Shown in pieces: positions 31,593 to 53,089 of a DNA stretch of 64,000 nucleotides (position 1 is its first letter; the number at the start of each line of letters is the position of its first letter). The stretch lies in the UHGV virus genome UHGV-0036582; one strand, given 5' to 3'. The stretch comes from a virus. The position numbers were made by a program, and so were the translations under genes. The notes below the pieces were generated by a model that was not told where the DNA came from, searched no databases, and was given only the letters and a program-made list of their open reading frames with translations.

Positions 31593-34500
31593 ATGTGGTA
31601 CAGGGAAGGTACTATCACATTTACACAGGGTAGCAATACTCTGGTTGGGGCAGGGACAGCCTGGAACGTAACAGCTAATGGTGTGTTGCCGGGGATGATC
31701 GTCATTGGCCCCGACAACAAGCTGTATGAGATCAAGCGCGTAACCAGTGATACGAACATTGTTCTCTCAGAACCTTATACCGGCGAAACTCAGTCTGAAG
31801 TTCCGTGCCGAATCATTACGACCTATGAAGGCGACTTAACACAGTTTAGCGCGCGCTTTACTGCACTAATGTCGCGTATGTCGGCTGATTCCAAGTCCAT
31901 GCGCAGTTGGTTGACTGCTCTGGATGAGGTGACAATCGAGCGTGAAGACGGTACAGAAGTGACCGTTAAGCCGCTAATGCAGATCGTCAACGAGCACAAC
32001 GAAAACGTTGAGTGGTATAAAAATAACACTGACGCGATTAATGCTGCTGGCGACAAAGCTCGTGAGGCGGCGGCCAGTGCTGCCGCAGCAGCAGAAAGCG
32101 CCAATACCGCTGGAGAAAAAGCCTCTCAAGCGTCTCAAAGTGCATCCGCTGCGGCATCTTCACAAAGTGCTGCAAGTGCGAGCGCAACTGCTGCGAAAAA
32201 ATCTGAAACGAACGCACAAGCCGCAAAAGAAGCGGCAGCAGAATCAGCATCTGTAGCGTCGGCCAAAGCATCGGAGGCAGCAACATCTGCGTCCAGTGCC
32301 TCTGCATCTAAGGATGCAGCCAAAGTATCAGAGACTAACGCTTCATCGAGCGCAAACGCGGCAGCATCATCGGCAACAGAAGCTGCAAATTCGTCTAAGG
32401 CAGCAAAAACGTCAGAGACAAACGCAAAAGCATCTGAAACGGCCGCCGGGCAGAGTGCAAAGTCTGCAAACAGTTCGAAATCTGCGGCAGAAGCCTCAGC
32501 AAGCGCAGCCTCAGCAAGCGCGGATAGTGCTTCATCAAGTGCAACAGCGGCAGGAAAATCTGCGGAAAGTGCATCGTCATCAGCGACAACAGCTACCACA
32601 AAAGCGACAGAGGCGACGAGTCAGGCTACAGCTGCTAAAAATTCAGCATCGGCAGCAAAAGCCTCTGAAACAAATGCAAAGACTTCAGAAGACAATGCTG
32701 CTTCCTCTAAGGCGGCAGCTGCTGAATCTGCAAGTTCTGCGTCTGCATCAGCTACCTCGGCATCCGCTTCAAAAGATGAGGCGACTAAACAGGCGTCAGC
32801 AGCGAAGGGCAGTGCCACGACGGCATCCACAAAGGCAACAGAGGCGGCAGGCAGTGCGACGGCTGCATCTCAGAGCAAAACTGCTGCCGAATCTGCTGCG
32901 ACCCGTGCAGAAGCAGCCGCAGATCGTGCTGAAGAGATTGCCGGTGCAGTTGCGATGGAAGACGCAACCCTTACAACTAAAGGTGTTGTGAAACTTAGTA
33001 GTGCGACAGATAGCACCAGTGAATCGCTGGCTGCAACGCCAAAGGCAGTTAAAGCAGCCAATGACAATGCGAATAGTAGGGTGCCATCTAACCGAAAAAT
33101 TAACGGGAAAGCACTGACTGCGGATATCACATTAACGCCGAAAGATATTGGCACTTTAAATTCAGTAACGATGTCTTTCTCTGGCGGGGCTGGGTGGTTC
33201 AAACTGGCTACGGTTACCATGCCACAAGCGAGTTCCATCGTTTACATTGCATTGATTGGTGGCGCTGGTTACAACGTCGGCTCCCCACAGCAGGCAGGCA
33301 TTTCAGAACTGGTTTTACGAGCAGGCAATGGAAACCCCAAAGGGATTACCGGAGCTTTGTGGAAGCGTACAGCCGTCGGATTAACGAATTTCGCCTGGAT
33401 CAACACATCCGGCGATAAATATGATATTTACGTTGAGATTGGCAATTATGCGACGAGTGTAAATATCCATTGGGACTGTACTGCAAATGCGTCAGTTTCT
33501 GTTTATACCTCGCCAACATATTCAGCGAGTAAGCCTTCCGGCGTTACCGATGGCGTTGTTTATACGGTGTATAGCTCACACCAGAAACCTACACCATCAG
33601 ATATTGGAGCACTGCCAACAACGGGAGGGACTATTTCAGGTCCGTTGGCTGTTACTGGTGGGATCACCGGAACATTAAATGGCAATGCAAGTACCGCTAC
33701 GAAATTGCAGACTGCAAGAACTATCGGCGGCGTGGCCTTCGATGGCTCTGCGAACATAAATTTGCCTGGTGTAAACACGGCAGGTAATCAGAGCACTACT
33801 GGTAATGCCGCAACCGCTACAAAACTTCAAACGGCAAGAACGATTGGTGGCGTTTCATTTAACGGAACTGCCAACATCGACTTGCCCGGAGTTAACAAAA
33901 CTGGCAACCAAAGCACCACAGGTAATGCTGCTACAGCTACTAAATTGCAGACTGCAAGAACCATCGGTGGTGTTAGCTTTGATGGCACTGCGAATATTAA
34001 TTTGCCAGGTGTAAATACGGCAGGTAATCAGAGCACTACAGGTAACGCGGCCACAGCGACCAAGTTGCAAACTGCTAGAACTATTAACGGGGTGTCGTTT
34101 AACGGCTCTGCGAATATTTCAATACCAACAATTACGTCCAGAGGACGCGTTACTGCGCTCACCGGTACAACACAAGGTGCTGCGACTGGATTGCAGATGT
34201 ACGAGGCATATAACAATGGCTACCCTTCGACTTACGGGAATGTGCTTCATCTTAAGGGCGCAACGGCCGTTGGTGAAGGTGAGTTGTTCATAGGTTGGAG
34301 CGGTACAAGTGGCGCTCATGCACCTGTACATGTACGTTCGCGACGAGATACGGATACATCCAGTTGGTCTGAATGGGCGCAAGTTTATACGTCCAAAGAC
34401 TCAATTCCAGGTGTTAATGCCACCGGTAATCAGAACACTACTGGCAACGCGGCAACCGCCACCAAATTGCAGACAGCGAGAAGAATTAACAATGTGGCTT

Positions 34501-35471
34501 TTGACGGCACGAAAGATATTACTCTAACGCCTGGTAATATCGGCGCTGCTGCTTCGTCTCAGGCATGGCTGAATACTGGCGATTCAGGACAATCATTATC
34601 CACATCGTCATTTATTACGCTGCTGCAAAATAACGGCGCATTCAATCAGCGTACATGGATTGCTCGCTGTTCGTGGGCTTATGCTAATAACGCCTCAATA
34701 CCGGATAGCGAAACAAAATGCGGCACTATTCCGCTTGCTGGCGCACTGATTGAAATAACCAGCTTTGGCATGACTAACTACACAATTAGGATCACCACCG
34801 CAACGACTACCAGCGTTTCCGGTGCAAAAGTAAACGCCGAATTTATTTACGTTTACAATGGGGATGGTTATTCGCCAGGCTGGCGCAGGCAGTACAATAC
34901 TAAAAACCTGCCGACGCCACTTGAGATAGGAACTTACAGCAAATCGGAGATTGACAATTTAAATAGGAATTTTCTCACATCGTCAAGACTTGAAGCTGGC
35001 TCGTTAGATGCAAACTTCCAGACGTTAACTTGTTATTATTTGCAAATATTCGACATTCAGACAACAACCGATAGTCCTAACATGTTCGTAAGTCCGATTG
35101 CTGGCTACAACATGGTTTTTCGTTCGACTTCATCCCGTCGATACAAGACGGATATCGAGTCTTTAGAGAACAAGTACGCGGACGAGCTGTTGAAACTTCG
35201 TCCTGTATGGTATCGCTCGACTTGTGAAAGGGACAGAAAGGACTGGGGACATTATGGCCTTATTGCAGAAGAAGTCGGAGAGATAGCACCGCAATATGTT
35301 CACTGGCGTCCTCTTACAGACGAAGATGATCCAAGTATAGCGTCTGATAATGGGATGGTTGCTGAAGGCGTGATGTATGACCGTCTGGTTGTTCCACTCA
35401 TTCACCATATTCAAAAACTGACAAAAAGGGTTGAGGAGCTTGAAGCGAAGTTAAATTCACCTGAAGAATAA
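31593..35471 (+). CDS. tail fibre protein with C-terminal S74-type intramolecular chaperone
   Basis: Ala/Ser-rich low-complexity region; five tandem ~40-aa repeats GNQSTTGNAATATKLQTARTIGGVSFDGTANI; C-terminal RRYKTDIESLENKYADELLKLRPVWYR...GLIAEEV motif block. Confidence 0.8.
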   Translation: MWYREGTITFTQGSNTLVGAGTAWNVTANGVLPGMIVIGPDNKLYEIKRVTSDTNIVLSEPYTGETQSEVPCRIITTYEGDLTQFSARFTALMSRMSADSKSMRSWLTALDEVTIEREDGTEVTVKPLMQIVNEHNENVEWYKNNTDAINAAGDKAREAAASAAAAAESANTAGEKASQASQSASAAASSQSAASASATAAKKSETNAQAAKEAAAESASVASAKASEAATSASSASASKDAAKVSETNASSSANAAASSATEAANSSKAAKTSETNAKASETAAGQSAKSANSSKSAAEASASAASASADSASSSATAAGKSAESASSSATTATTKATEATSQATAAKNSASAAKASETNAKTSEDNAASSKAAAAESASSASASATSASASKDEATKQASAAKGSATTASTKATEAAGSATAASQSKTAAESAATRAEAAADRAEEIAGAVAMEDATLTTKGVVKLSSATDSTSESLAATPKAVKAANDNANSRVPSNRKINGKALTADITLTPKDIGTLNSVTMSFSGGAGWFKLATVTMPQASSIVYIALIGGAGYNVGSPQQAGISELVLRAGNGNPKGITGALWKRTAVGLTNFAWINTSGDKYDIYVEIGNYATSVNIHWDCTANASVSVYTSPTYSASKPSGVTDGVVYTVYSSHQKPTPSDIGALPTTGGTISGPLAVTGGITGTLNGNASTATKLQTARTIGGVAFDGSANINLPGVNTAGNQSTTGNAATATKLQTARTIGGVSFNGTANIDLPGVNKTGNQSTTGNAATATKLQTARTIGGVSFDGTANINLPGVNTAGNQSTTGNAATATKLQTARTINGVSFNGSANISIPTITSRGRVTALTGTTQGAATGLQMYEAYNNGYPSTYGNVLHLKGATAVGEGELFIGWSGTSGAHAPVHVRSRRDTDTSSWSEWAQVYTSKDSIPGVNATGNQNTTGNAATATKLQTARRINNVAFDGTKDITLTPGNIGAAASSQAWLNTGDSGQSLSTSSFITLLQNNGAFNQRTWIARCSWAYANNASIPDSETKCGTIPLAGALIEITSFGMTNYTIRITTATTTSVSGAKVNAEFIYVYNGDGYSPGWRRQYNTKNLPTPLEIGTYSKSEIDNLNRNFLTSSRLEAGSLDANFQTLTCYYLQIFDIQTTTDSPNMFVSPIAGYNMVFRSTSSRRYKTDIESLENKYADELLKLRPVWYRSTCERDRKDWGHYGLIAEEVGEIAPQYVHWRPLTDEDDPSIASDNGMVAEGVMYDRLVVPLIHHIQKLTKRVEELEAKLNSPEE

Positions 35472-35597
35472 ACAACCTCAACGAGAATTAGTTTAGAAAC
35501 AAGTTCTCATTAGTTTTTTAATATATATAGGTAAGTACACGCCTATTAATTGAGGGGTGAAATATGATATAAATCCGCCATCCCGATTTGGCTTTTC

Positions 35598-35933
35598 ATG
35601 GAGGAAAACATGTCGAACGAGATGGCGGGCGTTACAACAGAGCAAGTTGAGCGTATTGCCGCGATCGTTGCTCGGGAGGTTGTTGGCAAATTAGGTAAAG
35701 AGCTACGTGAAGAAATTGGCCAGGAGGTCAACGATCAGCTGAAAACCTACTTTGGTGATATGACCCCGGCGCAACATAGTATTCAACACTCCAACCTGGA
35801 CAAACTCCTTAACCGGTTAGATTCCATCTCAAGTGGGTTCTTTGGCGGCATTGTTTCTAAAATAACGTCGTTCATTATTACCGCACTGCTTTTGGGGTTA
35901 GCCGCGTATGGCGTAAAAAATGGACTGCAATAA
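35598..35933 (+). CDS. putative holin or lysis-associated membrane protein
   Basis: 111 aa with single C-terminal TM segment ITSFIITALLLGLAAYGV, first gene of lysis block; topology atypical for holins. Confidence 0.3.
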   Translation: MEENMSNEMAGVTTEQVERIAAIVAREVVGKLGKELREEIGQEVNDQLKTYFGDMTPAQHSIQHSNLDKLLNRLDSISSGFFGGIVSKITSFIITALLLGLAAYGVKNGLQ

Positions 35934-36639
35934 CAGGAGATCAAGGATGAAGACTCCGAGAGGCATTCGTAATAATAACCCCGGTAATCTTGATAAAGGA
36001 TCACCGTGGCAAGGTCTGGTTGCGAATCCAGACGAACCGCGCTTTTGCACGTTTAAAGACCCTGTTTGGGGGATTCGTGCACTGGCGGTGACTCTAATTA
36101 CCTACCACGACAAGCGTCGCGCAAAAGACGGCTCAAGTATCGATACCATTCGTGAAGTTATTGAACGTTGGGCACCGCCGAATGAAAACAACACTGACGC
36201 CTACATTAATGAGGTGTCTAAAGCCGTTGGTGTAACCGCAGACATGATTATCGATCTGCATGATTACGACATTCTTCGACCTTTGGTTGAGGCAATCATT
36301 CGCCATGAGAATGGGCGAGGTCCGCTAAAAACGCTGAACACCTGGTATGCGGCAGAAGTTATTGAGGAAGGTCTGCGTCGAGCTGGCGTCGTTAAGCCGG
36401 TGAAAACCGTGAAGGCTGTTCCTGTAACTAAAGAAACGGCAGGCGCAACTGTTACAGCAGGTATTGGTCTGGCGCAGCTGGCCGATGTTATGCCGCAGGT
36501 TTCCGCTGCTATGGATAAAGCACAAGGTCATATCTCTAGCGGGGATACAGTACGCATCATCTTCGGTATTGCCACTATTGTTGTGGCTGGATTTATCGCC
36601 TGGTCGCAGGTAAGAAGACACCAGAAAGGGATGGTCTAA
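35920..36639 (+). CDS. putative endolysin / cell-wall hydrolase with C-terminal membrane anchor
   Basis: Sits immediately upstream of the spanin pair; N-terminal GIRNNNPGNL motif; C-terminal TM IIFGIATIVVAGFIAW; enzymatic class not assignable. Confidence 0.35.
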   Translation: MDCNNRRSRMKTPRGIRNNNPGNLDKGSPWQGLVANPDEPRFCTFKDPVWGIRALAVTLITYHDKRRAKDGSSIDTIREVIERWAPPNENNTDAYINEVSKAVGVTADMIIDLHDYDILRPLVEAIIRHENGRGPLKTLNTWYAAEVIEEGLRRAGVVKPVKTVKAVPVTKETAGATVTAGIGLAQLADVMPQVSAAMDKAQGHISSGDTVRIIFGIATIVVAGFIAWSQVRRHQKGMV

Positions 36640-36640
36640 T

Positions 36641-36892
36641 ATGCTAGGCAGCCTGATGACAAAGCTAAAAGTTGCTTTGATTACGCTGGCTGCCGTTCTT
36701 TTCGTTCTGGTCGGCGCTTACACGATGGGCGGAAATGCGGCGCGACGAGCAATGGAAGAGAAGGCAAAACAGGAAGACAGGAAACGACTTCAAAGCACAG
36801 TGGACGTCAAAAATGAAACACTTGATGAGTTACGGCGCAAGGATGCTTCTACTGTTCATCATGAGTTGCACAATAAGTGGTTGCGTGATTAA
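36641..36892 (+). CDS. i-spanin (Rz-like)
   Basis: N-terminal TM VALITLAAVLFVLVGAY followed by charged helical periplasmic region. Confidence 0.55.
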   Translation: MLGSLMTKLKVALITLAAVLFVLVGAYTMGGNAARRAMEEKAKQEDRKRLQSTVDVKNETLDELRRKDASTVHHELHNKWLRD

Positions 36893-37043
36893 GCCTCAAC
36901 CCGCTGGTGTGCTTTTCTGCGATGCGGCTACACCGCTATACATCAGCCGTGATGATCTCATGACCGAAGAGACTGAAAGAGAGGTGCTTTTTCACAATAT
37001 GATTGGGGAGCGATTGTGTGGATGGGGCAGAAAAGTGCCATAA
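36735..37043 (+). CDS. o-spanin (Rz1-like lipoprotein) in +1 frame overlapping the i-spanin gene
   Basis: MKHLMSYGARMLLLFIMSCTISGC: signal peptide with lipobox ISGC; real start probably an internal Met near 36813. Confidence 0.55.
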   Translation: MRRDEQWKRRQNRKTGNDFKAQWTSKMKHLMSYGARMLLLFIMSCTISGCVIKPQPAGVLFCDAATPLYISRDDLMTEETEREVLFHNMIGERLCGWGRKVP

Positions 37044-37217
37044 CAAAAGTGGCGTTTTCTAACATAAAATTTGCATATTATTAGAGCACAAGGTAGATTT
37101 GATGCATGGATGTCAAGTAAATCATACCTTGTTTTAATAAATCGACGCATACTCGTAGCCTCTAAACCGACAAGGTCGCCGCTATGACATAAAGTTATTA
37201 CCGGCTAAGGTGGAAAC

Positions 37218-37616
37218 ATGCATACTGCACTTAACGCATCTCGTTCTATTCAGACGATAAGAGACTGTACCAAGATGATCGCATCGGTTCCGTTGCGGCA
37301 TTGGAATGACTCGCTCCAAATTCGTGAAATGAACAAACCGGGTATGCTTAAGGATCAGCGTTTCATCGTTAACCTTAAAAGTGACGTTGAAGAAGGCAAG
37401 TTTACCATCAAATTGTTTGCAGAAATGATGGTGCTCAACAATCGGTTACGTTTTCTTGTTAAGCCAGAAAAACAGTTTCCCGATGTTGTGCGTTGTGAAC
37501 AGGATGCTTTCTATGAGATTGAAAGCAAAATAGCTAAATTTATCAAAGATAAATACCGCGTAGATGTTAAAATAGCGAAACTGGATTCATCTACGGATAT
37601 GCGGCTTGCTAACTAA
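37218..37616 (+). CDS. hypothetical protein
   Basis: 132-aa ORF. Confidence 0.4.
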   Translation: MHTALNASRSIQTIRDCTKMIASVPLRHWNDSLQIREMNKPGMLKDQRFIVNLKSDVEEGKFTIKLFAEMMVLNNRLRFLVKPEKQFPDVVRCEQDAFYEIESKIAKFIKDKYRVDVKIAKLDSSTDMRLAN

Positions 37617-38393
37617 ATGTCACCATCATTCATAGCAGAGTATTCAAAAGTACTGTCTGGTTTCCCTGAATGTGAAGCAAGAGAGAAAATCAGAGTTGGC
37701 TACATGGTTAACTCTGATTTTTCTGTTTTACGGCTCACAGAGTGGTCCTTGATCGGGTCTAATTATGATTACTGTTTGACAGTGTCATTTGTAGGCGACC
37801 CTGATGCAGATTGGCTTCAAGAACATGCAATGGATCTTGACGAGCAGGGGTATTCAGAAGCAGAGATAGTTCATAGTGTTCGTGAATTAGTTGGTGATGA
37901 GCAAGAAGATGATGACGGCATTCAGATCGCCAGGTTCGTCTACAAACGATTCCAGTTTCGCTCACAAAAAGGCTCTCATCTTGGGGTCCAGATTAAAGGG
38001 GCATTTGTAACCCCTTCAAAGGAACAAAAGGGACTTGCTAGAAGAGTTTACAATTTCCTTCTCAATTGGCATGACCATGTGGTATGTGATGACCATCAGA
38101 CGGTTTACGGTGCCAGAATTTGGGCGGTCGGTATGCTTCTGGTCGGGCGTGTCCAAATCTATGACAATTTAAACAAAGAATTTATAGATGTCCTTGTTGA
38201 AGGTGGTATTGGGCAGAATGGCGTCAAACCGTGGGACGCGCTGCTATTGAGCAGCGAGGCCCAGTTACGTCACTGGAACCCTATGGCCGTCAGCATAGAC
38301 CCATCTAGTCAGATTCTCGCCATCATCTCCAAAGAAGACCGTCACATTGAAGTGGGCGTTACAACTTTTGACGCCAGGTCTACCAACCATTAA
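37617..38393 (+). CDS. hypothetical protein
   Basis: 258-aa ORF followed by strong terminator. Confidence 0.45.
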   Translation: MSPSFIAEYSKVLSGFPECEAREKIRVGYMVNSDFSVLRLTEWSLIGSNYDYCLTVSFVGDPDADWLQEHAMDLDEQGYSEAEIVHSVRELVGDEQEDDDGIQIARFVYKRFQFRSQKGSHLGVQIKGAFVTPSKEQKGLARRVYNFLLNWHDHVVCDDHQTVYGARIWAVGMLLVGRVQIYDNLNKEFIDVLVEGGIGQNGVKPWDALLLSSEAQLRHWNPMAVSIDPSSQILAIISKEDRHIEVGVTTFDARSTNH

Positions 38394-38548: not shown

Positions 38549-39217
38549 ATGACCAAGATCTTTGTGGTTGGCGGCACAAAGGGCGGGCCTGGCAAATCCA
38601 CCGTTGCCCAGCAAATTGCCGTTTGCCTGAAAGTCAAAAAGAAGAAGAAGGTTTATATCACTGATATAGATATTCAGCGCACGACAACAAGCTGGTGTGA
38701 AGACCGTCGACAGAACGAAGACCTTGAGCTGATTCCTTTTGCATACGTTCAGGATGACATCATTAAGCACCTAAAATCGCTTCAGGGTAGAGCTGAGTTT
38801 GTAGTGGTAGATGCTGGTGGCTTTGACTCCGAAATTCAGCGACAAGCGATGCTGATGGCCGACGTTATCATTATCCCGCTGCGTCCTAAGCGTCGTGATT
38901 TGAAATCTTTACGTGACATCGATCCTATTATCGACAATGTTCGTAATGTAAACGATAAAGTGAAGGTCCGCGCGGTCATGAACCAGTGCCCGGCTTTGCC
39001 ATCACAAGTGTCTCGCATTTTGGCGGCTAAAGAGATTGTCGAGACGTTTGGCATCGAGTCTGCGCCAGTCAATTTATATAACCGCAACGTCTATGATGAT
39101 GCGGAAGAGTCTGGTCGTTCTATCTTTGAAATGACCGGTAGCGAGCGCGACAAAAAGGCGGAAGCCGAGTTTGAAGAATTTGTAGATTATCTGTTGAGTC
39201 TGGAGGAAGAAGAATAA
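38549..39217 (+). CDS. parA: ParA-family partition ATPase
   Basis: Deviant Walker A GGTKGGPGKST, Walker B VVVDAGG; 222 aa (small type Ib ParA size). Confidence 0.8.
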   Translation: MTKIFVVGGTKGGPGKSTVAQQIAVCLKVKKKKKVYITDIDIQRTTTSWCEDRRQNEDLELIPFAYVQDDIIKHLKSLQGRAEFVVVDAGGFDSEIQRQAMLMADVIIIPLRPKRRDLKSLRDIDPIIDNVRNVNDKVKVRAVMNQCPALPSQVSRILAAKEIVETFGIESAPVNLYNRNVYDDAEESGRSIFEMTGSERDKKAEAEFEEFVDYLLSLEEEE

Positions 39218-49980: not shown

Positions 49981-50054
49981 ATAGACAATTACGGCAGACG
50001 TTCTTAACCATAGCTTGCTAACATCCTAGCAACACTTTTTTCAGCGCAAAATTC

Positions 50055-50078
50055 AAAGGGGCTTCGGCCCCTTTTTTG
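50055..50078. terminator. bidirectional intrinsic terminator
   Basis: AAA-GGGGC-TTCG-GCCCC-TTTTTT; ends both the tRNA transcript and the convergent minus-strand gene. Confidence 0.85.
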
Positions 50079-50092
50079 TTGAACAGTGCAAT

Positions 50093-51355
50093 TTACTTTG
50101 CATAGTCGCCCAATTTTAATATTTCGCGCTTATATTCATTAACCATGCTACTGGATTCAGTATAAATTCGATTTAAAAGATTATCGTTATCTTTATTTTC
50201 ATTTATCTTAATTAGTGCTAATTTATATTCATAGTCATCAAATGCCACAATTAAATGGTGGCCTGGGATTATATCTTCGTCACTCTTAAAGTATATATCT
50301 TCAAGTATGTAATCTAGTTGATTAGATTTTCTTTTCTCGATGTAATCTTCAGCCATAGCTATTACATCATTCCTGTCATTTAACCTGTTTTTTTCGGAAG
50401 GCACATCTTCGTAATGTTGCACGATTGAACAACCAATAAGGCGTGGGATGTAAACGTCAAAATGAGTAACTCTATCATTCGCGGTTTTAAGTAGTTCCTC
50501 AAAGTAGTTTCTTACATGTAAAGGCAACTTCTCAAAGTAATCATTAATTATAGGAGAACAAGGAGTTTTATAATTCATAAGAACCGACGGTACGAGCTTT
50601 GGGTGTCGAAACATCCAGTCCCTTTTAACGTCCGATGGAACATAATAACTTTTAATGATATTATCAAAATAATTTATCATTCGAGATTTGAATATTTTGT
50701 TGAATCTAAGGTTTATGAATGTATCCAGATAAGGCATATTTGAATAAGCATCATCAAAAAATATTTCATCATTGAAAAAATCATATTTATTCAATAAACA
50801 ACACAGTTTTTCCGAATTAATATGTTCACAATAATCGATTTTTAATCCAAAGATAGCAATGATCAACTTCATCTGAGGTGGGATTTTAAAAATTAATTGT
50901 GACACATACGCTCTTTTTTCCTTGAGACATTCCCCATCAATATAAAATGAACCATCCACATACTCAAATATATTAATAATATGCTTCACATACTGTATTA
51001 CCTCATGCTGTCTTACCAATGGATAATATAGTCTATGTAACTCATCGCTGTTTAAATTAATTTTGTGTTTATCGATAATTTGTTTTGCAAGAAGACATAA
51101 CTCATCATGTTGATTTAATAAGGAATCAAACCATTGTTTAAATGCACTCTTTCGCATTTCGAACAATGATTCAGTTGTTAATTGAAGGGCTGAAAAAGCT
51201 GCTTTTGCACTTTTTCTCGCTTCGTAGGCATTCCATGCTGTTGCTATAAAAGCAAATGCTGTAGCCAATGTTCCAACAGTTTGACCATTTAAAACAACCC
51301 AATCCCAAAAAATGACGGTGAGCAGTAGTATAATAATGAAAATTAAAAAAGGCAT
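50093..51355 (-). CDS. AT-rich moron: membrane-anchored protein of unknown function (candidate exclusion/abortive-infection factor)
   Basis: 420 aa; N-terminal hydrophobic segments (FLIFIIILLLTVIFWDWVV, VGTLATAFAFIATAW); hand-counted GC about 20-28 percent in sampled lines versus about 50 percent in structural genes; opposite strand to flanking genes. Confidence 0.6.
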   Translation of the reverse strand: MPFLIFIIILLLTVIFWDWVVLNGQTVGTLATAFAFIATAWNAYEARKSAKAAFSALQLTTESLFEMRKSAFKQWFDSLLNQHDELCLLAKQIIDKHKINLNSDELHRLYYPLVRQHEVIQYVKHIINIFEYVDGSFYIDGECLKEKRAYVSQLIFKIPPQMKLIIAIFGLKIDYCEHINSEKLCCLLNKYDFFNDEIFFDDAYSNMPYLDTFINLRFNKIFKSRMINYFDNIIKSYYVPSDVKRDWMFRHPKLVPSVLMNYKTPCSPIINDYFEKLPLHVRNYFEELLKTANDRVTHFDVYIPRLIGCSIVQHYEDVPSEKNRLNDRNDVIAMAEDYIEKRKSNQLDYILEDIYFKSDEDIIPGHHLIVAFDDYEYKLALIKINENKDNDNLLNRIYTESSSMVNEYKREILKLGDYAK

Positions 51356-51529
51356 GTATGTATTTCACTCTACTAACTATAAAATATTAGGCTAATGTTA
51401 ACCAAACAATGCCTTAATTAATAGATTGATCGAGGCTTTAATAGCTTTATAATGCAGACTGTAAAGATAAGTATGCACATACCTATCTTCTTTGTAAGTA
51501 AAGTTGCATATCAATTCTATGAGGTAACA

Positions 51530-51775
51530 ATGACGATCACTATCTACGGACGAGATAACTGCTCATACTGCAAACGTGCGGTCGAGCTGGCGAAGCAACT
51601 AAAGGGACATGGCTACGGTGATTATGAGTACATCGACATCACCACTGCCGGTATCGACAAGGAAAAACTAAGTGAAATTGTTGGTAAACCGGTAGAGACT
51701 ATCCCCCAAGTGCTGATCGATGGCCAACCGATTGGCGGATACACAGAACTGGCTGCATACGTCAGCACCCTCTGA
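51530..51775 (+). CDS. glutaredoxin (NrdC-like)
   Basis: ITIYGRDNCSYCKRA CxxC active site; C-terminal PQVLIDGQPIGGY; ATG 51530 after GAGGTAA RBS. Confidence 0.75.
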   Translation: MTITIYGRDNCSYCKRAVELAKQLKGHGYGDYEYIDITTAGIDKEKLSEIVGKPVETIPQVLIDGQPIGGYTELAAYVSTL

Positions 51776-51780
51776 TTTTA

Positions 51781-51805
51781 ACGGCTCACAGGAGCCGTTT
51801 TTATT
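51781..51805 (+). terminator. intrinsic terminator after glutaredoxin gene
   Basis: ACGGCTC-ACAG-GAGCCGT followed by TTTTATT. Confidence 0.8.
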
Positions 51806-51854
51806 CCCACCAAACTCACTCCCGTTTCCCTTAAAATTCAAAAAACAACGTCAA

Positions 51855-51887
51855 AATGATTCCATACCTACTATGTATGGAATCATT
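51855..51887. promoter_or_regulatory. 12-bp perfect inverted repeat upstream of recombinase gene
   Basis: AATGATTCCATA-cctactatg-TATGGAATCATT; left arm is the third copy of the AAATGATTCCATAC repeat. Confidence 0.5.
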
Positions 51888-51985
51888 GCTGAAAATGAGT
51901 TACTTTTACTCTTGATCCTATAAGAATCTATGCCTAATATACTGTTTACTTATACAGTGCATCGGCGTAACTCGGTGATTGTCAT

Positions 51986-53089
51986 ATGAAAAATAGCTTT
52001 GACAGAGCACGCGCTGCGGAGAACACCTCAAAAGAGGCGATAGAGTATCTCGAAAGAGCATCTCAAATGCAGGCCGTTATGATCTCCCAGGTCAGCAATG
52101 ACATGAGATTCTCGGACGCATTCATGTTATTCACTCGCTTATCTCTGCTGATAACCAGACGTCGGCCAGAGATCGCTGTTCATTGTATTTTGATACATGT
52201 TTTGCCGCACCTTGCCGATGTAAAAGTAAGTGACATTAATAGGTTCATGGTGAACCAACTGGTCAACCCACTAATACTGGATGGCAAAATTGTTATGGGC
52301 CGCCGCGTTTTCTCTCTGATGAAGCAGTTCCTTAGCTGGTGCGCCTTCCAGGGGATGATAGACGTGTCACCGTTAAACGATATGTCACTTAACAATGTTG
52401 CCGGTGGCGCAAAGCCCACACCTCGCGAGCGGAAGCTGACCGACGCAGAGGTATGGGTGTTCTGGAATATATGGGACTACTTCAATGTGTGCGCTGGTAC
52501 AAAATGGGCGGCCAGGCTATGTCTTGTATCCGCAAGACGACCTGACGAAGTACTGCGGGCTAAAAAAAGTGAGTTCAACCTCCAGCGTGGGGTTTGGAAT
52601 CAAGGCAAGAGAAACAAATCAGCCCGTGAGCATTCTCTGCCTTTAAGCACATTAATGCGCACATGCATTGAAGAGTTATTCGAATATGGTAAAGGCAGCC
52701 AGTGGCTTGTGCCTTCGAATAAAAAAATCGGGAATGATCTTCCGATGTCTAAAGTGGCAATAGCCCAGGCATTACGCCGTATCCTGGAACGACCAGAACT
52801 GATGGAGCTTGAGCCATTTACACCCCGAGATTTGCGTCGTACTGCGCGTAGTTACTTCCCAGCATTAGGCATAAGCCAGGAGGTATCACGCAAAATCATG
52901 AACCACAGTCTTGAGGGGATAGATCGGGTCTACGACCGGCACGATTATATGGACGAGATGCGAGACGCCTTAGAAAGTTTCTCGACGTACATCGCATCAA
53001 TCGTAGAGCAACCGGATTTAGACGAAATTGACCACAAATTCAAGGGAGATCGTCTATCAACAGAGCTTATTCGTGTAAATTTTTCATAG
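51986..53089 (+). CDS. tyrosine recombinase / phage integrase family
   Basis: C-terminal catalytic block PRDLRRTARS ... MNHS ... VYDRHDY (Arg/His/Tyr positions of the tyrosine recombinase fold); 367 aa. Confidence 0.7.
   Translation: MKNSFDRARAAENTSKEAIEYLERASQMQAVMISQVSNDMRFSDAFMLFTRLSLLITRRRPEIAVHCILIHVLPHLADVKVSDINRFMVNQLVNPLILDGKIVMGRRVFSLMKQFLSWCAFQGMIDVSPLNDMSLNNVAGGAKPTPRERKLTDAEVWVFWNIWDYFNVCAGTKWAARLCLVSARRPDEVLRAKKSEFNLQRGVWNQGKRNKSAREHSLPLSTLMRTCIEELFEYGKGSQWLVPSNKKIGNDLPMSKVAIAQALRRILERPELMELEPFTPRDLRRTARSYFPALGISQEVSRKIMNHSLEGIDRVYDRHDYMDEMRDALESFSTYIASIVEQPDLDEIDHKFKGDRLSTELIRVNFS

Follow-up and report, generated by a model that had tools for sequence, protein, structure and literature searches.

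The four genes found on the + strand between positions 35598 and 37043 of the window (a stretch of 64,000 nucleotides of the virus genome UHGV-0036582) very probably form the lysis cassette of an SSU5-like phage-plasmid, with the second gene encoding an endolysin of the Enc34 ORF39/M4Lys family. The cassette is ordinary and has been annotated before, being a near-copy of those of Salmonella phage SSU5 and Escherichia phage Cyrano, and the class of its lytic enzyme is not open: judged from clear homology to a family that has been crystallized and assayed, it can be regarded as settled. There is one modestly interesting, uncharacterised component in the cassette, namely the small membrane protein (phrog_5093) encoded upstream of the endolysin.

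Setting and organization of the cassette

The element hosting the cassette is 97% identical to phage PhiR41_1, 93% to Cyrano and 82% to SSU5, and the cassette immediately follows the tail-fibre gene, on the + strand. The four open reading frames of the original prediction, hereafter genes 1 to 4, are all present on this strand at 35598-35933 (111 aa), 35920-36639 (239 aa), 36641-36892 (83 aa) and 36735-37043 (102 aa). Their products match PHROG families with E values of 8e-69, 9e-89, 2e-23 and 2e-22, respectively, and the cassette is carried by 391 plasmid records; because of the strength of these matches and of this recurrence, the four ORFs are not a product of chance. The same four genes, 82-93% identical at the nucleotide level, occur in this order in SSU5 (gp26-gp30) and Cyrano (gp22-gp25), where they are annotated, by inference only, as putative holin, endolysin, Rz and Rz1; no functional difference between these cassettes and the present one was seen. 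The initial reading of the region as a lysis cassette comprising a membrane-anchored endolysin and an overlapped i-/o-spanin pair was thus correct.

While the ORFs exist as first described, their bounds do not all stand, as the likely start codons at 35610, 35947 and 36813 give shorter proteins. The likely true start of gene 1 (35610, 107 aa) is preceded at a distance of 5 nt by GGAGG, and that of the endolysin gene (35947, 230 aa) at a distance of 7 nt by AGGAG. These two starts agree with the annotated lengths of the Cyrano and SSU5 genes (324 and 693 nt) and with the boundaries of the PHROG profiles, and they make an overlap between genes 1 and 2 improbable. A scan of positions 35300-37400 returned no + strand promoter and no terminator, with signals below shuffle expectation. 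None of the cassette proteins reached the curated cut-offs in Pfam and NCBIfam scans, and no second holin-like gene adjoining the cassette was found in the window.

The endolysin and its membrane domain

Gene 2 (35947-36639, + strand, in an ORF open from 35920) encodes a 230-aa protein whose assignment to the Enc34 ORF39/M4Lys type is based on a match to a crystal structure, on PHROG and on pairwise identities. A phmmer search against the PDB aligned residues 10-160 of the query with residues 4-168 of 7q47_A (E = 1.5e-54), from RGIRNNNPGN through GLRRAG. The catalytic domain (aa 1 to about 151, 35947-36399) is 59% identical to the enzymatically active domain (EAD) of Enc34, and the protein is 55.6% identical to gp37 of the Chi-like phage KFS-SE1 over 234 columns, i.e. 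over its full length and including the transmembrane domain (TMD). It also belongs to phrog_873, annotated as 'endolysin' (E = 9e-89). It should be noted that identities of 55-59% to assayed enzymes, although high, are no proof of identical behaviour.

The groove of Enc34 ORF39 contains the catalytic Glu131, proposed on the basis of structural superposition, together with Trp79 and Tyr95 (PMC8943055). The corresponding residues Trp75, Tyr86 and Glu121 (230-aa numbering) are conserved here, and the motifs ERW, DAY and RHENG align; Glu121 (36307-36309), aligned with Glu131 of Enc34, is therefore the predicted catalytic residue. For this family, the crystal structure 7Q47, turbidity-reduction activity and muropeptide mass spectrometry indicating an N-acetylglucosaminidase have been reported (PMC8943055, PMC7143992). 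The Enc34 EAD is muralytic and full-length Enc34 ORF39 is toxic (PMC8943055), while M4Lys of Salmonella phage BSPM4 lyses E. coli on its own in an azide-insensitive manner, needs its TMD to do so, and yields N-acetylglucosaminidase products (PMC7143992).

The original prediction had left the enzyme class open and had not been able to assign the motif GIRNNNPGNL to a hydrolase class. The motif and the C-terminal transmembrane segment (TM) are indeed both present in the 239-aa ORF, but GIRNNNPGN (35962-35988) is the N-terminal signature of the Enc34 ORF39/M4Lys family, and the 7Q47 match leads to a family provided with both structure and activity data. The motif had escaped placement for want of a Pfam or NCBIfam model of this domain.

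A Kyte-Doolittle analysis with a 19-residue window gave a maximum of 2.07 for the 239-aa ORF and of 2.02 for the 111-aa ORF. Hydropathy, charge and alignment with the Chi-like endolysin delimit a C-terminal membrane domain (36436-36636) made of a weakly hydrophobic proximal segment rich in Gly, Ala and Thr (aa 164-186, 36436-36504, hydropathy about 1.1), a strongly hydrophobic distal TM (aa ~203-221, 36553-36609, hydropathy 2.07) and a basic tail, VRRHQKGMV (36610-36636), with a net charge of +3. This region aligns with the TMD of KFS-SE1 gp37, so that the likeness to the Chivirus endolysins (PMC7143992) extends to the amphipathic helix, the TM and the basic tail; the TMD of Enc34 ORF39 likewise consists of two helices (PMC8943055). 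The membrane anchor, initially described as atypical, is in fact a hallmark of the family. Since the hydropathy profile of the first 150 residues contains no hydrophobic stretch, export of the endolysin by means of a SAR domain or a signal peptide was rejected.

Enc34 ORF39, from a Hafnia phage, provides the closest comparison (PMC8943055), since it shares the catalytic domain, the RGIRNNNPGN signature, the Trp/Tyr/Glu set and the two-segment C-terminal membrane domain, and likewise has a small membrane protein encoded on one side and overlapped spanins on the other. However, Enc34 is a Chi-related siphovirus of ~60 kb, whereas the present element is a temperate phage-plasmid of ~108 kb; the endolysin described here lacks two short insertions (5 and 6 residues) of the Enc34 enzyme, and the upstream partners are unrelated, Enc34 ORF38 having an N-terminal TM and a dual start. 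In the M4Lys systems, too, the partner differs, being a Chi-type ORF37 holin instead of a phrog_5093 protein. With the SAR endolysins that operate with pinholins (P1 Lyz and phage 21 R), the protein would share the membrane tether, lysis without a large-hole holin and a release for which depolarization has been proposed as the trigger; in contrast, SAR endolysins have an N-terminal anchor and depend on Sec for export, while here the anchor is C-terminal and the homologue M4Lys is insensitive to azide.

By analogy with the characterized homologues, the protein would consist of an all-helical glycosidase domain, similar to the alpha-lobe of lysozyme and containing Glu121, Trp75 and Tyr86, followed by a linker and the membrane domain. 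The latter would hold the enzyme at the inner membrane and, if M4Lys is a reliable guide, would also be required for access to murein, without Sec and, under overexpression, without a separate holin. Enzymatic activity and membrane tethering are thus predicted from the homologues, and we expect the same behaviour as that of M4Lys, that is, glycosidase activity and Sec-independent lysis requiring the TMD (PMC7143992).

That the protein is instead a structural protein or a virion-associated peptidoglycan hydrolase used for entry, with the real endolysin encoded elsewhere, is very improbable: the catalytic domain does form part of large virion proteins in many phages (internal virion protein D of SP6-like phages, tape-measure and ejection proteins, Gp29 of PDB 9vvp), the family is PHA02564 in the NCBI CDD, under the name 'virion protein', PHROG places phrog_873 under 'head and packaging' and the gene comes after a tail-fibre gene, but it lies between a membrane protein gene and the spanin genes, it is built over its full length, down to the TMD, like M4Lys, an enzyme that lyses cells from the inside, and no other endolysin is annotated among the 131 features of SSU5 or was found as a candidate near the cassette in the window.

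The spanin pair

Gene 3 (36641-36892, + strand) encodes an 83-aa i-spanin matching phrog_1026, Rz-like spanin (E = 1.7e-23), with an N-terminal TM at about aa 8-27 followed by a helical and charged periplasmic part of ~55 aa. The product of gene 4 is an o-spanin lipoprotein precursor (phrog_1275, E = 2e-22); its ORF is open from 36735, but the most likely start, 36813, gives a 76-aa precursor (36813-37043, + strand), equal in length to SSU5_029. The precursor contains the lipobox ISGC, in which the Cys to be lipidated is encoded at 36882-36884, and would leave a mature part of 53 aa. The o-spanin gene is in the +1 frame with respect to the i-spanin gene (frames 1 and 2), and the two overlap by 80 nt (36813-36892). 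The pair of an N-terminal TM protein and an ISGC lipoprotein recognized at the outset was confirmed.

On alignment, the o-spanin is related to the Chi-like o-spanin and shares its conserved GERLCGW end, while the i-spanin aligns only weakly with the Chi-like i-spanin (pairwise score 45). In the published catalogue of spanins, the SSU5 o-spanin is placed in the Chi family and its i-spanin in a singleton family (PMC6139136). Judging from these alignments, and from an overlapped architecture and a short i-spanin (about 83-85 aa) that are common to the Chi family, genes 3 and 4 encode overlapped two-component spanins of the Chi type, although the SSU5 i-spanin stands apart as a singleton family. 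The possibility that these spanins are too short to function was rejected, because their combined periplasmic length of ~107 residues, albeit short, lies within the published range of 62-300 (PMC6139136). Once the wall is degraded, the pair would disrupt the outer membrane.

The small membrane protein upstream of the endolysin

Gene 1 (35610-35933, + strand, in an ORF open from 35598) encodes a 107-aa tail-anchored membrane protein, as indicated by PHROG, hydropathy and AF2 modelling. The protein consists of a helical, net-acidic soluble part (aa 1-78, net charge -4), predicted to be cytoplasmic, and of a single C-terminal TM at about aa 80-102 (hydropathy 2.02), beyond which there are only about seven residues (GVKNGLQ, with one Lys). 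Three residues, G49, H56 and H60, are invariant within the motif FGDMxPxxHxxQH. The AF2 model obtained with a 26-sequence alignment has a pLDDT of 85.5 and shows two long helices (10-48 and 53-104), whereas a shallow 14-sequence alignment gave a pLDDT of 47. All the 26 family members in the alignment match a single PHROG, phrog_5093, of 'unknown function', and none of them matches DUF2730 (releasin) at E <= 0.1. A Foldseek search with the model against the PDB and BFVD gave nothing at E < 1, and no Pfam or NCBIfam match points to homology with a described holin family.

The doubt originally expressed about a 111-aa protein with a single C-terminal TM, considered unlike a holin in topology, was justified. 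Gene 1 does encode a small protein with at least one TM, adjoining an endolysin, as holins do, but there is no charged hydrophilic C-terminal domain past the last TM. Nor does it have the defining features of a releasin, DUF2730 homology and an N-terminal TM (N-out, C-in), as DUF2730 matches are lacking and its TM is C-terminal. Three further possibilities were discarded: a conserved dual start (MSNEM), as the second Met is not conserved; homology to the Chi-type holin, whose TM, judged by eye, is placed oppositely; and homology to DUF2730, which produced no match. The label 'putative holin' given to this gene in SSU5 and Cyrano comes from position only.

A search for related loci with the closer alignment of gene 1 retrieved SSU5-like copies only, and one with the distant subgroup gave two viral loci and one genomic locus. 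An exhaustive profile search, on the other hand, identified ~60 cluster representatives with the same architecture and the invariant G/H/H residues. In every context examined, the lysis cassette opens with the family member, and 9 of the 12 related cassettes that were read have a recognizable endolysin directly downstream of it or at most two genes away. The adjoining or nearby endolysins are of five types (PHA02564 with TMD, Peptidase_M15_3, VanY/M15_4, SAR-type phrog_669 and GH24-like SAR); in L007, L013, L016, L018 and L100 the endolysin directly downstream is a soluble M15 enzyme. Another small membrane protein is encoded besides the phrog_5093 member in all the cassettes whose endolysin lacks a TMD or was not recognized (9/9), and no such additional gene occurs in the lineages with a TMD endolysin (SSU5-like and L010, 2/2). 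L006 and L101 encode a full canonical set made up of a 3-TM holin, a SAR endolysin and an i-spanin, with L101 encoding an o-spanin as well; the L006 holin matches phrog_8226 (E = 4e-10), which the L101 counterpart resembles by eye. Most of these extra small TM proteins match no named holin family.

The occurrence of another small membrane protein in 9/9 cassettes without a TMD endolysin suggests that gene 1 may encode a lysis regulator and not a holin. We would give a regulatory role (antiholin or releasin-like) a little less than an even chance, a role as the actual holin a slightly lower one, and something else altogether a small share. Gene 1 would be part of the lysis programme, and would most likely set or tune the timing of lysis.

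It is plausible, if short of an even chance, that no separate holin exists in the SSU5-type cassette, and that the two-segment membrane domain of the endolysin (weak SAR-like helix, strong TM and basic tail), which resembles a class II holin or a pinholin, itself makes the lesion; phrog_5093 would then be an antiholin- or releasin-like regulator acting at the cytoplasmic side of the membrane, perhaps on the basic tail. M4Lys alone lyses cells, its TMD alone is bacteriostatic, and its TM and charged C-terminus were likened to holins by the authors (PMC7143992); the caution was expressed, however, that holin-independent lysis may be an overexpression artefact (PMC8943055). The absence of an extra small membrane protein from the SSU5-like and L010 lineages agrees with this reading, but is a correlation of context in about a dozen lineages, and the extra proteins found elsewhere mostly cannot be linked to named holins. 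The soluble domain of gene 1 has a net charge of -4 and the endolysin tail one of +3. A parallel is offered by the Mu releasin gp25, in which an acidic domain in the cytoplasm targets basic residues on the cytoplasmic side of the SAR endolysin (PMC9239132). Gp25 is also a small tethered protein with an acidic, helical and mostly cytoplasmic domain, it belongs to a lysis cassette with a membrane-anchored endolysin, and its family spans several endolysin classes. In contrast, gene 1 has no sequence similarity to gp25 or to other DUF2730 releasins, its TM is C-terminal and not N-terminal, and it is located upstream of the endolysin, while gp25 is downstream. Furthermore, Chi-like phages pair the same type of endolysin with ORF37, which reportedly behaves as a holin (PMC11657625).

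The other reading, also somewhat below even, makes gene 1 a holin of an unusual single-TM, tail-anchored class, which would depolarize the membrane and thereby release or activate the tethered endolysin, much as a pinholin does with a SAR endolysin. Pinholin-like partners that release Enc34-type endolysins in a SAR-like manner have been the subject of speculation (PMC8943055). The position immediately upstream of the endolysin is the classical one, and is also that of the reported Chi-like holin; the family members directly upstream of soluble M15 endolysins are consistent with this role, and the product of gene 1 is a small membrane protein, annotated as holin in SSU5 and Cyrano. Against this stand its single TM with ~7 residues beyond it and no charged C-terminal domain, its lack of homology to any holin family and of a conserved dual start, and the presence of other holin-like genes in related cassettes, at times as part of a whole canonical cassette that follows the family member.

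Taking up the regulatory reading again, we suggest, quite tentatively, that phrog_5093 represents an unrecognized class of tail-anchored, cytoplasm-facing lysis regulators, characterized by an invariant Gly and His-x3-His, that gate the endolysin TMD without a separate holin.

As far as the enzyme class is concerned, little is at stake, because the class is settled and the cassette nearly copies those annotated in SSU5 and Cyrano. The absence of a Pfam or NCBIfam model for the catalytic domain is nevertheless an annotation gap, and in the best 8 of the 391 enterobacterial plasmid records the cassette genes are called 'hypothetical protein' or 'membrane protein'. The SSU5-type cassette pairs an Enc34/M4Lys-type enzyme with a different partner, phrog_5093, which recurs with five endolysin types. 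It is therefore a natural comparison system for asking whether endolysins of this kind supply the holin function themselves, and what the partner does.

A four-gene lysis cassette of SSU5-like phage-plasmids

Four co-directional ORFs (35598-37043, + strand) lie directly behind a 1292-aa tail-fibre gene, arranged as the original prediction had described. By Megablast the region falls among SSU5-like phage-plasmids: Escherichia phage PhiR41_1 shares 97% identity with it, Cyrano 93% and Salmonella phage SSU5 82%. In PLSDB, 391 plasmid records also carry the cassette; most are non-mobilizable plasmids of ~110 kb from Escherichia, Enterobacter, Salmonella and Citrobacter. The same four genes are annotated as holin, endolysin, Rz and Rz1 in Cyrano and SSU5; the cassette is already known from related phages.

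The ORF coordinates first proposed were those of maximal ORFs. For the first two genes, starts at 35610 (+; GGAGG 5 nt upstream; 107 aa) and 35947 (+; AGGAG 7 nt upstream; 230 aa) appear more probable than the maximal-ORF starts. The resulting lengths are those given for the two genes in the Cyrano and SSU5 annotations (324 and 693 nt), and the revised starts agree with the PHROG profile boundaries (ORF residues 5-111 against profile positions 1-107 of 107).

The spanin pair was correctly recognized. The 83-aa i-spanin has an N-terminal TM segment (+; phrog_1026, E=1.7e-23), and the o-spanin is a lipoprotein with an ISGC lipobox (+; phrog_1275, E=2e-22) that aligns with the Chi-like o-spanin through its conserved GERLCGW end. 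Translation of the latter most likely starts at 36813 (+; MKHLMSYGAR-MLLLFIMSCT-ISGC), predicting a 76-aa precursor equal in length to SSU5_029; its gene, in the +1 frame, shares 80 nt with that of the i-spanin and ends 151 nt past it. The spanins of SSU5 are already catalogued, the i-spanin as an overlapped-class singleton and the o-spanin in the Chi family, together with Enc34 (PMC6139136). With a combined periplasmic length of ~107 residues, the spanins of the window are short, yet within the catalogue's range of 62-300.

As to the surroundings, a ParA-like partition ATPase gene (38549-39217, 222 aa; SSU5_033 / Cyrano ParA) lies ~1.5 kb downstream of the cassette; its presence confirms that the element lives as a phage-plasmid. 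The two ORFs that separate the spanin genes from parA (132 and 258 aa; 37218-38393, +) had no matches other than PHROGs without known function (phrog_2594, phrog_3307). Cyrano carries a KacT-type toxin-antitoxin pair at this position, oppositely oriented, so the slot immediately behind the lysis cassette holds variable cargo. In translation, the tail-fibre ORF (31593-35471) contains a long low-complexity Ala/Ser-rich stretch, at least four copies of a ~38-aa motif (NxTGNQSTTGNAATATKLQTARTIGGVxFxGxANIxLPGV) and a C-terminal end similar to those of intramolecular-chaperone tail spikes. The lowest GC of the window (0.34 vs about 0.46 overall) is found at 50001-52000, a stretch that may be acquired cargo and that contains a 420-aa ORF with a strongly hydrophobic N-terminus (50093-51355, minus strand).

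The endolysin and its membrane domain

The lysis enzyme class, which the original prediction had considered open, is settled by homology as a known one, crystallized and assayed in homologues. In a PDB sequence search, the 230-aa protein matched chain 7q47_A ('Endolysin'; E=1.5e-54, ORF residues 10-160), the catalytic domain of Hafnia phage Enc34 ORF39, which in isolation is muralytic on permeabilized E. coli, P. aeruginosa and H. alvei (PMC8943055). Identity to the Enc34 domain is 59%, and Trp75, Tyr86 and Glu121 (230-aa numbering) are all kept, as is the RGIRNNNPGN start. Over its whole length, including linker, amphipathic helix, TM helix and basic tail, the protein shares 55.6% identity with the endolysin of KFS-SE1, a Chi-like phage. 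Among Chi-like endolysins, the characterized representative is M4Lys (phage BSPM4). Its expression is by itself enough to lyse E. coli; azide does not block this lysis, whereas truncation of the TMD abolishes it, and the products indicate N-acetylglucosaminidase, possibly plus endopeptidase, activity (PMC7143992).

The C-terminal TM anchor had thus been rightly noted, but it is a hallmark of the Enc34/M4Lys family and not atypical. Likewise, the GIRNNNPGNL motif had seemed unassignable because the Enc34-type catalytic domain is missing from the models of Pfam-A and NCBIfam; of the three family collections, PHROGs alone covers it (phrog_873, 'endolysin', E=9e-89). A true endolysin encoded elsewhere finds no support, as there is no other among the 131 annotated features of SSU5.

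A tblastn search placed the domain in 793 phage records, with a query coverage of 80% or more in 182; among the matches listed, the full-length ones came from SSU5-like phages, Chi-like phages and relatives of these. In other phages (SP6-like, Mu-like Pseudomonas, NO16-like and others) the domain occurs alone, within virion proteins or as a short endolysin. Many podo- and siphoviruses contain it in internal virion, ejection or tape-measure proteins, and it forms the N-terminus of the 1295-aa virion protein Gp29, whose structure is solved (PDB 9vvp chain L; also matched in the PDB search, E=6e-22). The same domain family is thus used for lysis at entry and at exit.

By hydropathy, the C-terminal region of the endolysin contains a Gly/Ala/Thr-rich, weakly hydrophobic segment (aa 164-186; 19-residue maximum about 1.1) and a strongly hydrophobic distal TM (aa ~203-221; maximum 2.07), followed by the tail VRRHQKGMV, whose charge of +3 places it in the cytoplasm by the positive-inside rule. 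If the distal helix is the sole span, the catalytic domain would be periplasmic, a location that no known export route explains for Enc34-type endolysins (PMC8943055). In an alternative reading of our own, the two segments would cross the membrane together as a hairpin; this would put the catalytic domain in the cytoplasm, and the membrane domain would resemble a class II holin or pinholin fused to the endolysin, with a weak TMD1, a strong TMD2 and a charged C-terminus.

The phrog_5093 protein as a possible lysis regulator

The doubt cast on the first protein as a holin was justified. It has a single C-terminal TM followed by only ~7 residues, preceded by a helical soluble part of net charge -4, while the Chi/Enc34-type holin has an N-proximal TM; judged by eye from topology, the two are unrelated. 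No Pfam or NCBIfam family matched, and the sole PHROG, phrog_5093, is of 'unknown function'. A word-indexed search found SSU5-like copies only, all named 'hypothetical'; an exhaustive profile search (1.84 billion cluster representatives, E<=1e-3) returned 60 relatives, most of 94-143 aa. The 26 that were aligned share a common layout, with invariant Gly49, His56 and His60 and the motif FGDMxPxxHxxQHxR...D..S.NFWG just before the TM. AlphaFold2, given this alignment, predicted two long helices (10-48 and 53-104) with the FGDM turn between them (pLDDT 85.5); fold searches with the model were uninformative.

In the neighbourhoods of 12 relatives, not counting the SSU5-like group, an apparent lysis cassette invariably opens with the phrog_5093 member, usually straight behind tail-fibre genes. 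What follows the member varies (loci are given by our handles): a PHA02564+TMD endolysin and then a phrog_1026 i-spanin (L010); a soluble Peptidase_M15_3 endolysin (L007, L013, L016, L100, and L018, whose stretch ends inside that gene), with a small TM protein next to it downstream in the first four, having two hydrophobic segments in L016 and L100; a VanY/M15_4 endolysin (L015); a 62-aa TM protein and then a GH24-like SAR endolysin (L014); or small multi-TM proteins, with no recognizable endolysin within the stretch read (L011, L012, L099). In the other two of these loci the member is an extra lysis gene, with a complete canonical cassette downstream: 3-TM holin (phrog_8226, E=4e-10), SAR endolysin (phrog_669) and i-spanin in L006 (1081-2979 on a JGI metagenome contig), and 3-TM holin (by eye like that of L006), SAR endolysin, i-spanin and o-spanin in L101 (351-2190 on an Alphaproteobacteria MAG contig). 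That phrog_5093 members accompany endolysins of five types is a strong argument for a role in lysis.

Each of the nine readable cassettes that lack a TMD endolysin encodes a further small membrane protein, a potential holin, and the two lineages with such an endolysin do not; most of these extra proteins matched no named holin family. As contextual evidence from about a dozen lineages, the pattern fits an antiholin-like or releasin-like regulator at least as well as a holin. A possible functional analogue is gp25 of phage Mu, an acidic cytoplasmic protein that is tethered to the membrane and frees a SAR endolysin with basic cytoplasmic residues (PMC9239132), although there is no homology and the TMs are at opposite ends. 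A remaining novel reading, which we hold less likely than not, is that phrog_5093 could represent a lysis regulator of a new class, its target being an endolysin that carries a holin-like domain of its own.

The original interpretation is partly upheld: the region is a lysis cassette with a membrane-anchored endolysin and overlapped spanins, but its enzyme is of a class already known. In the 8 best-matching of the 391 plasmid records, its genes are labelled 'hypothetical protein' or 'membrane protein' and not endolysin or spanin (e.g. NZ_CP050499.1 35916-37361), which, with the missing Pfam and NCBIfam models, marks an annotation gap for the Enc34-type catalytic domain.
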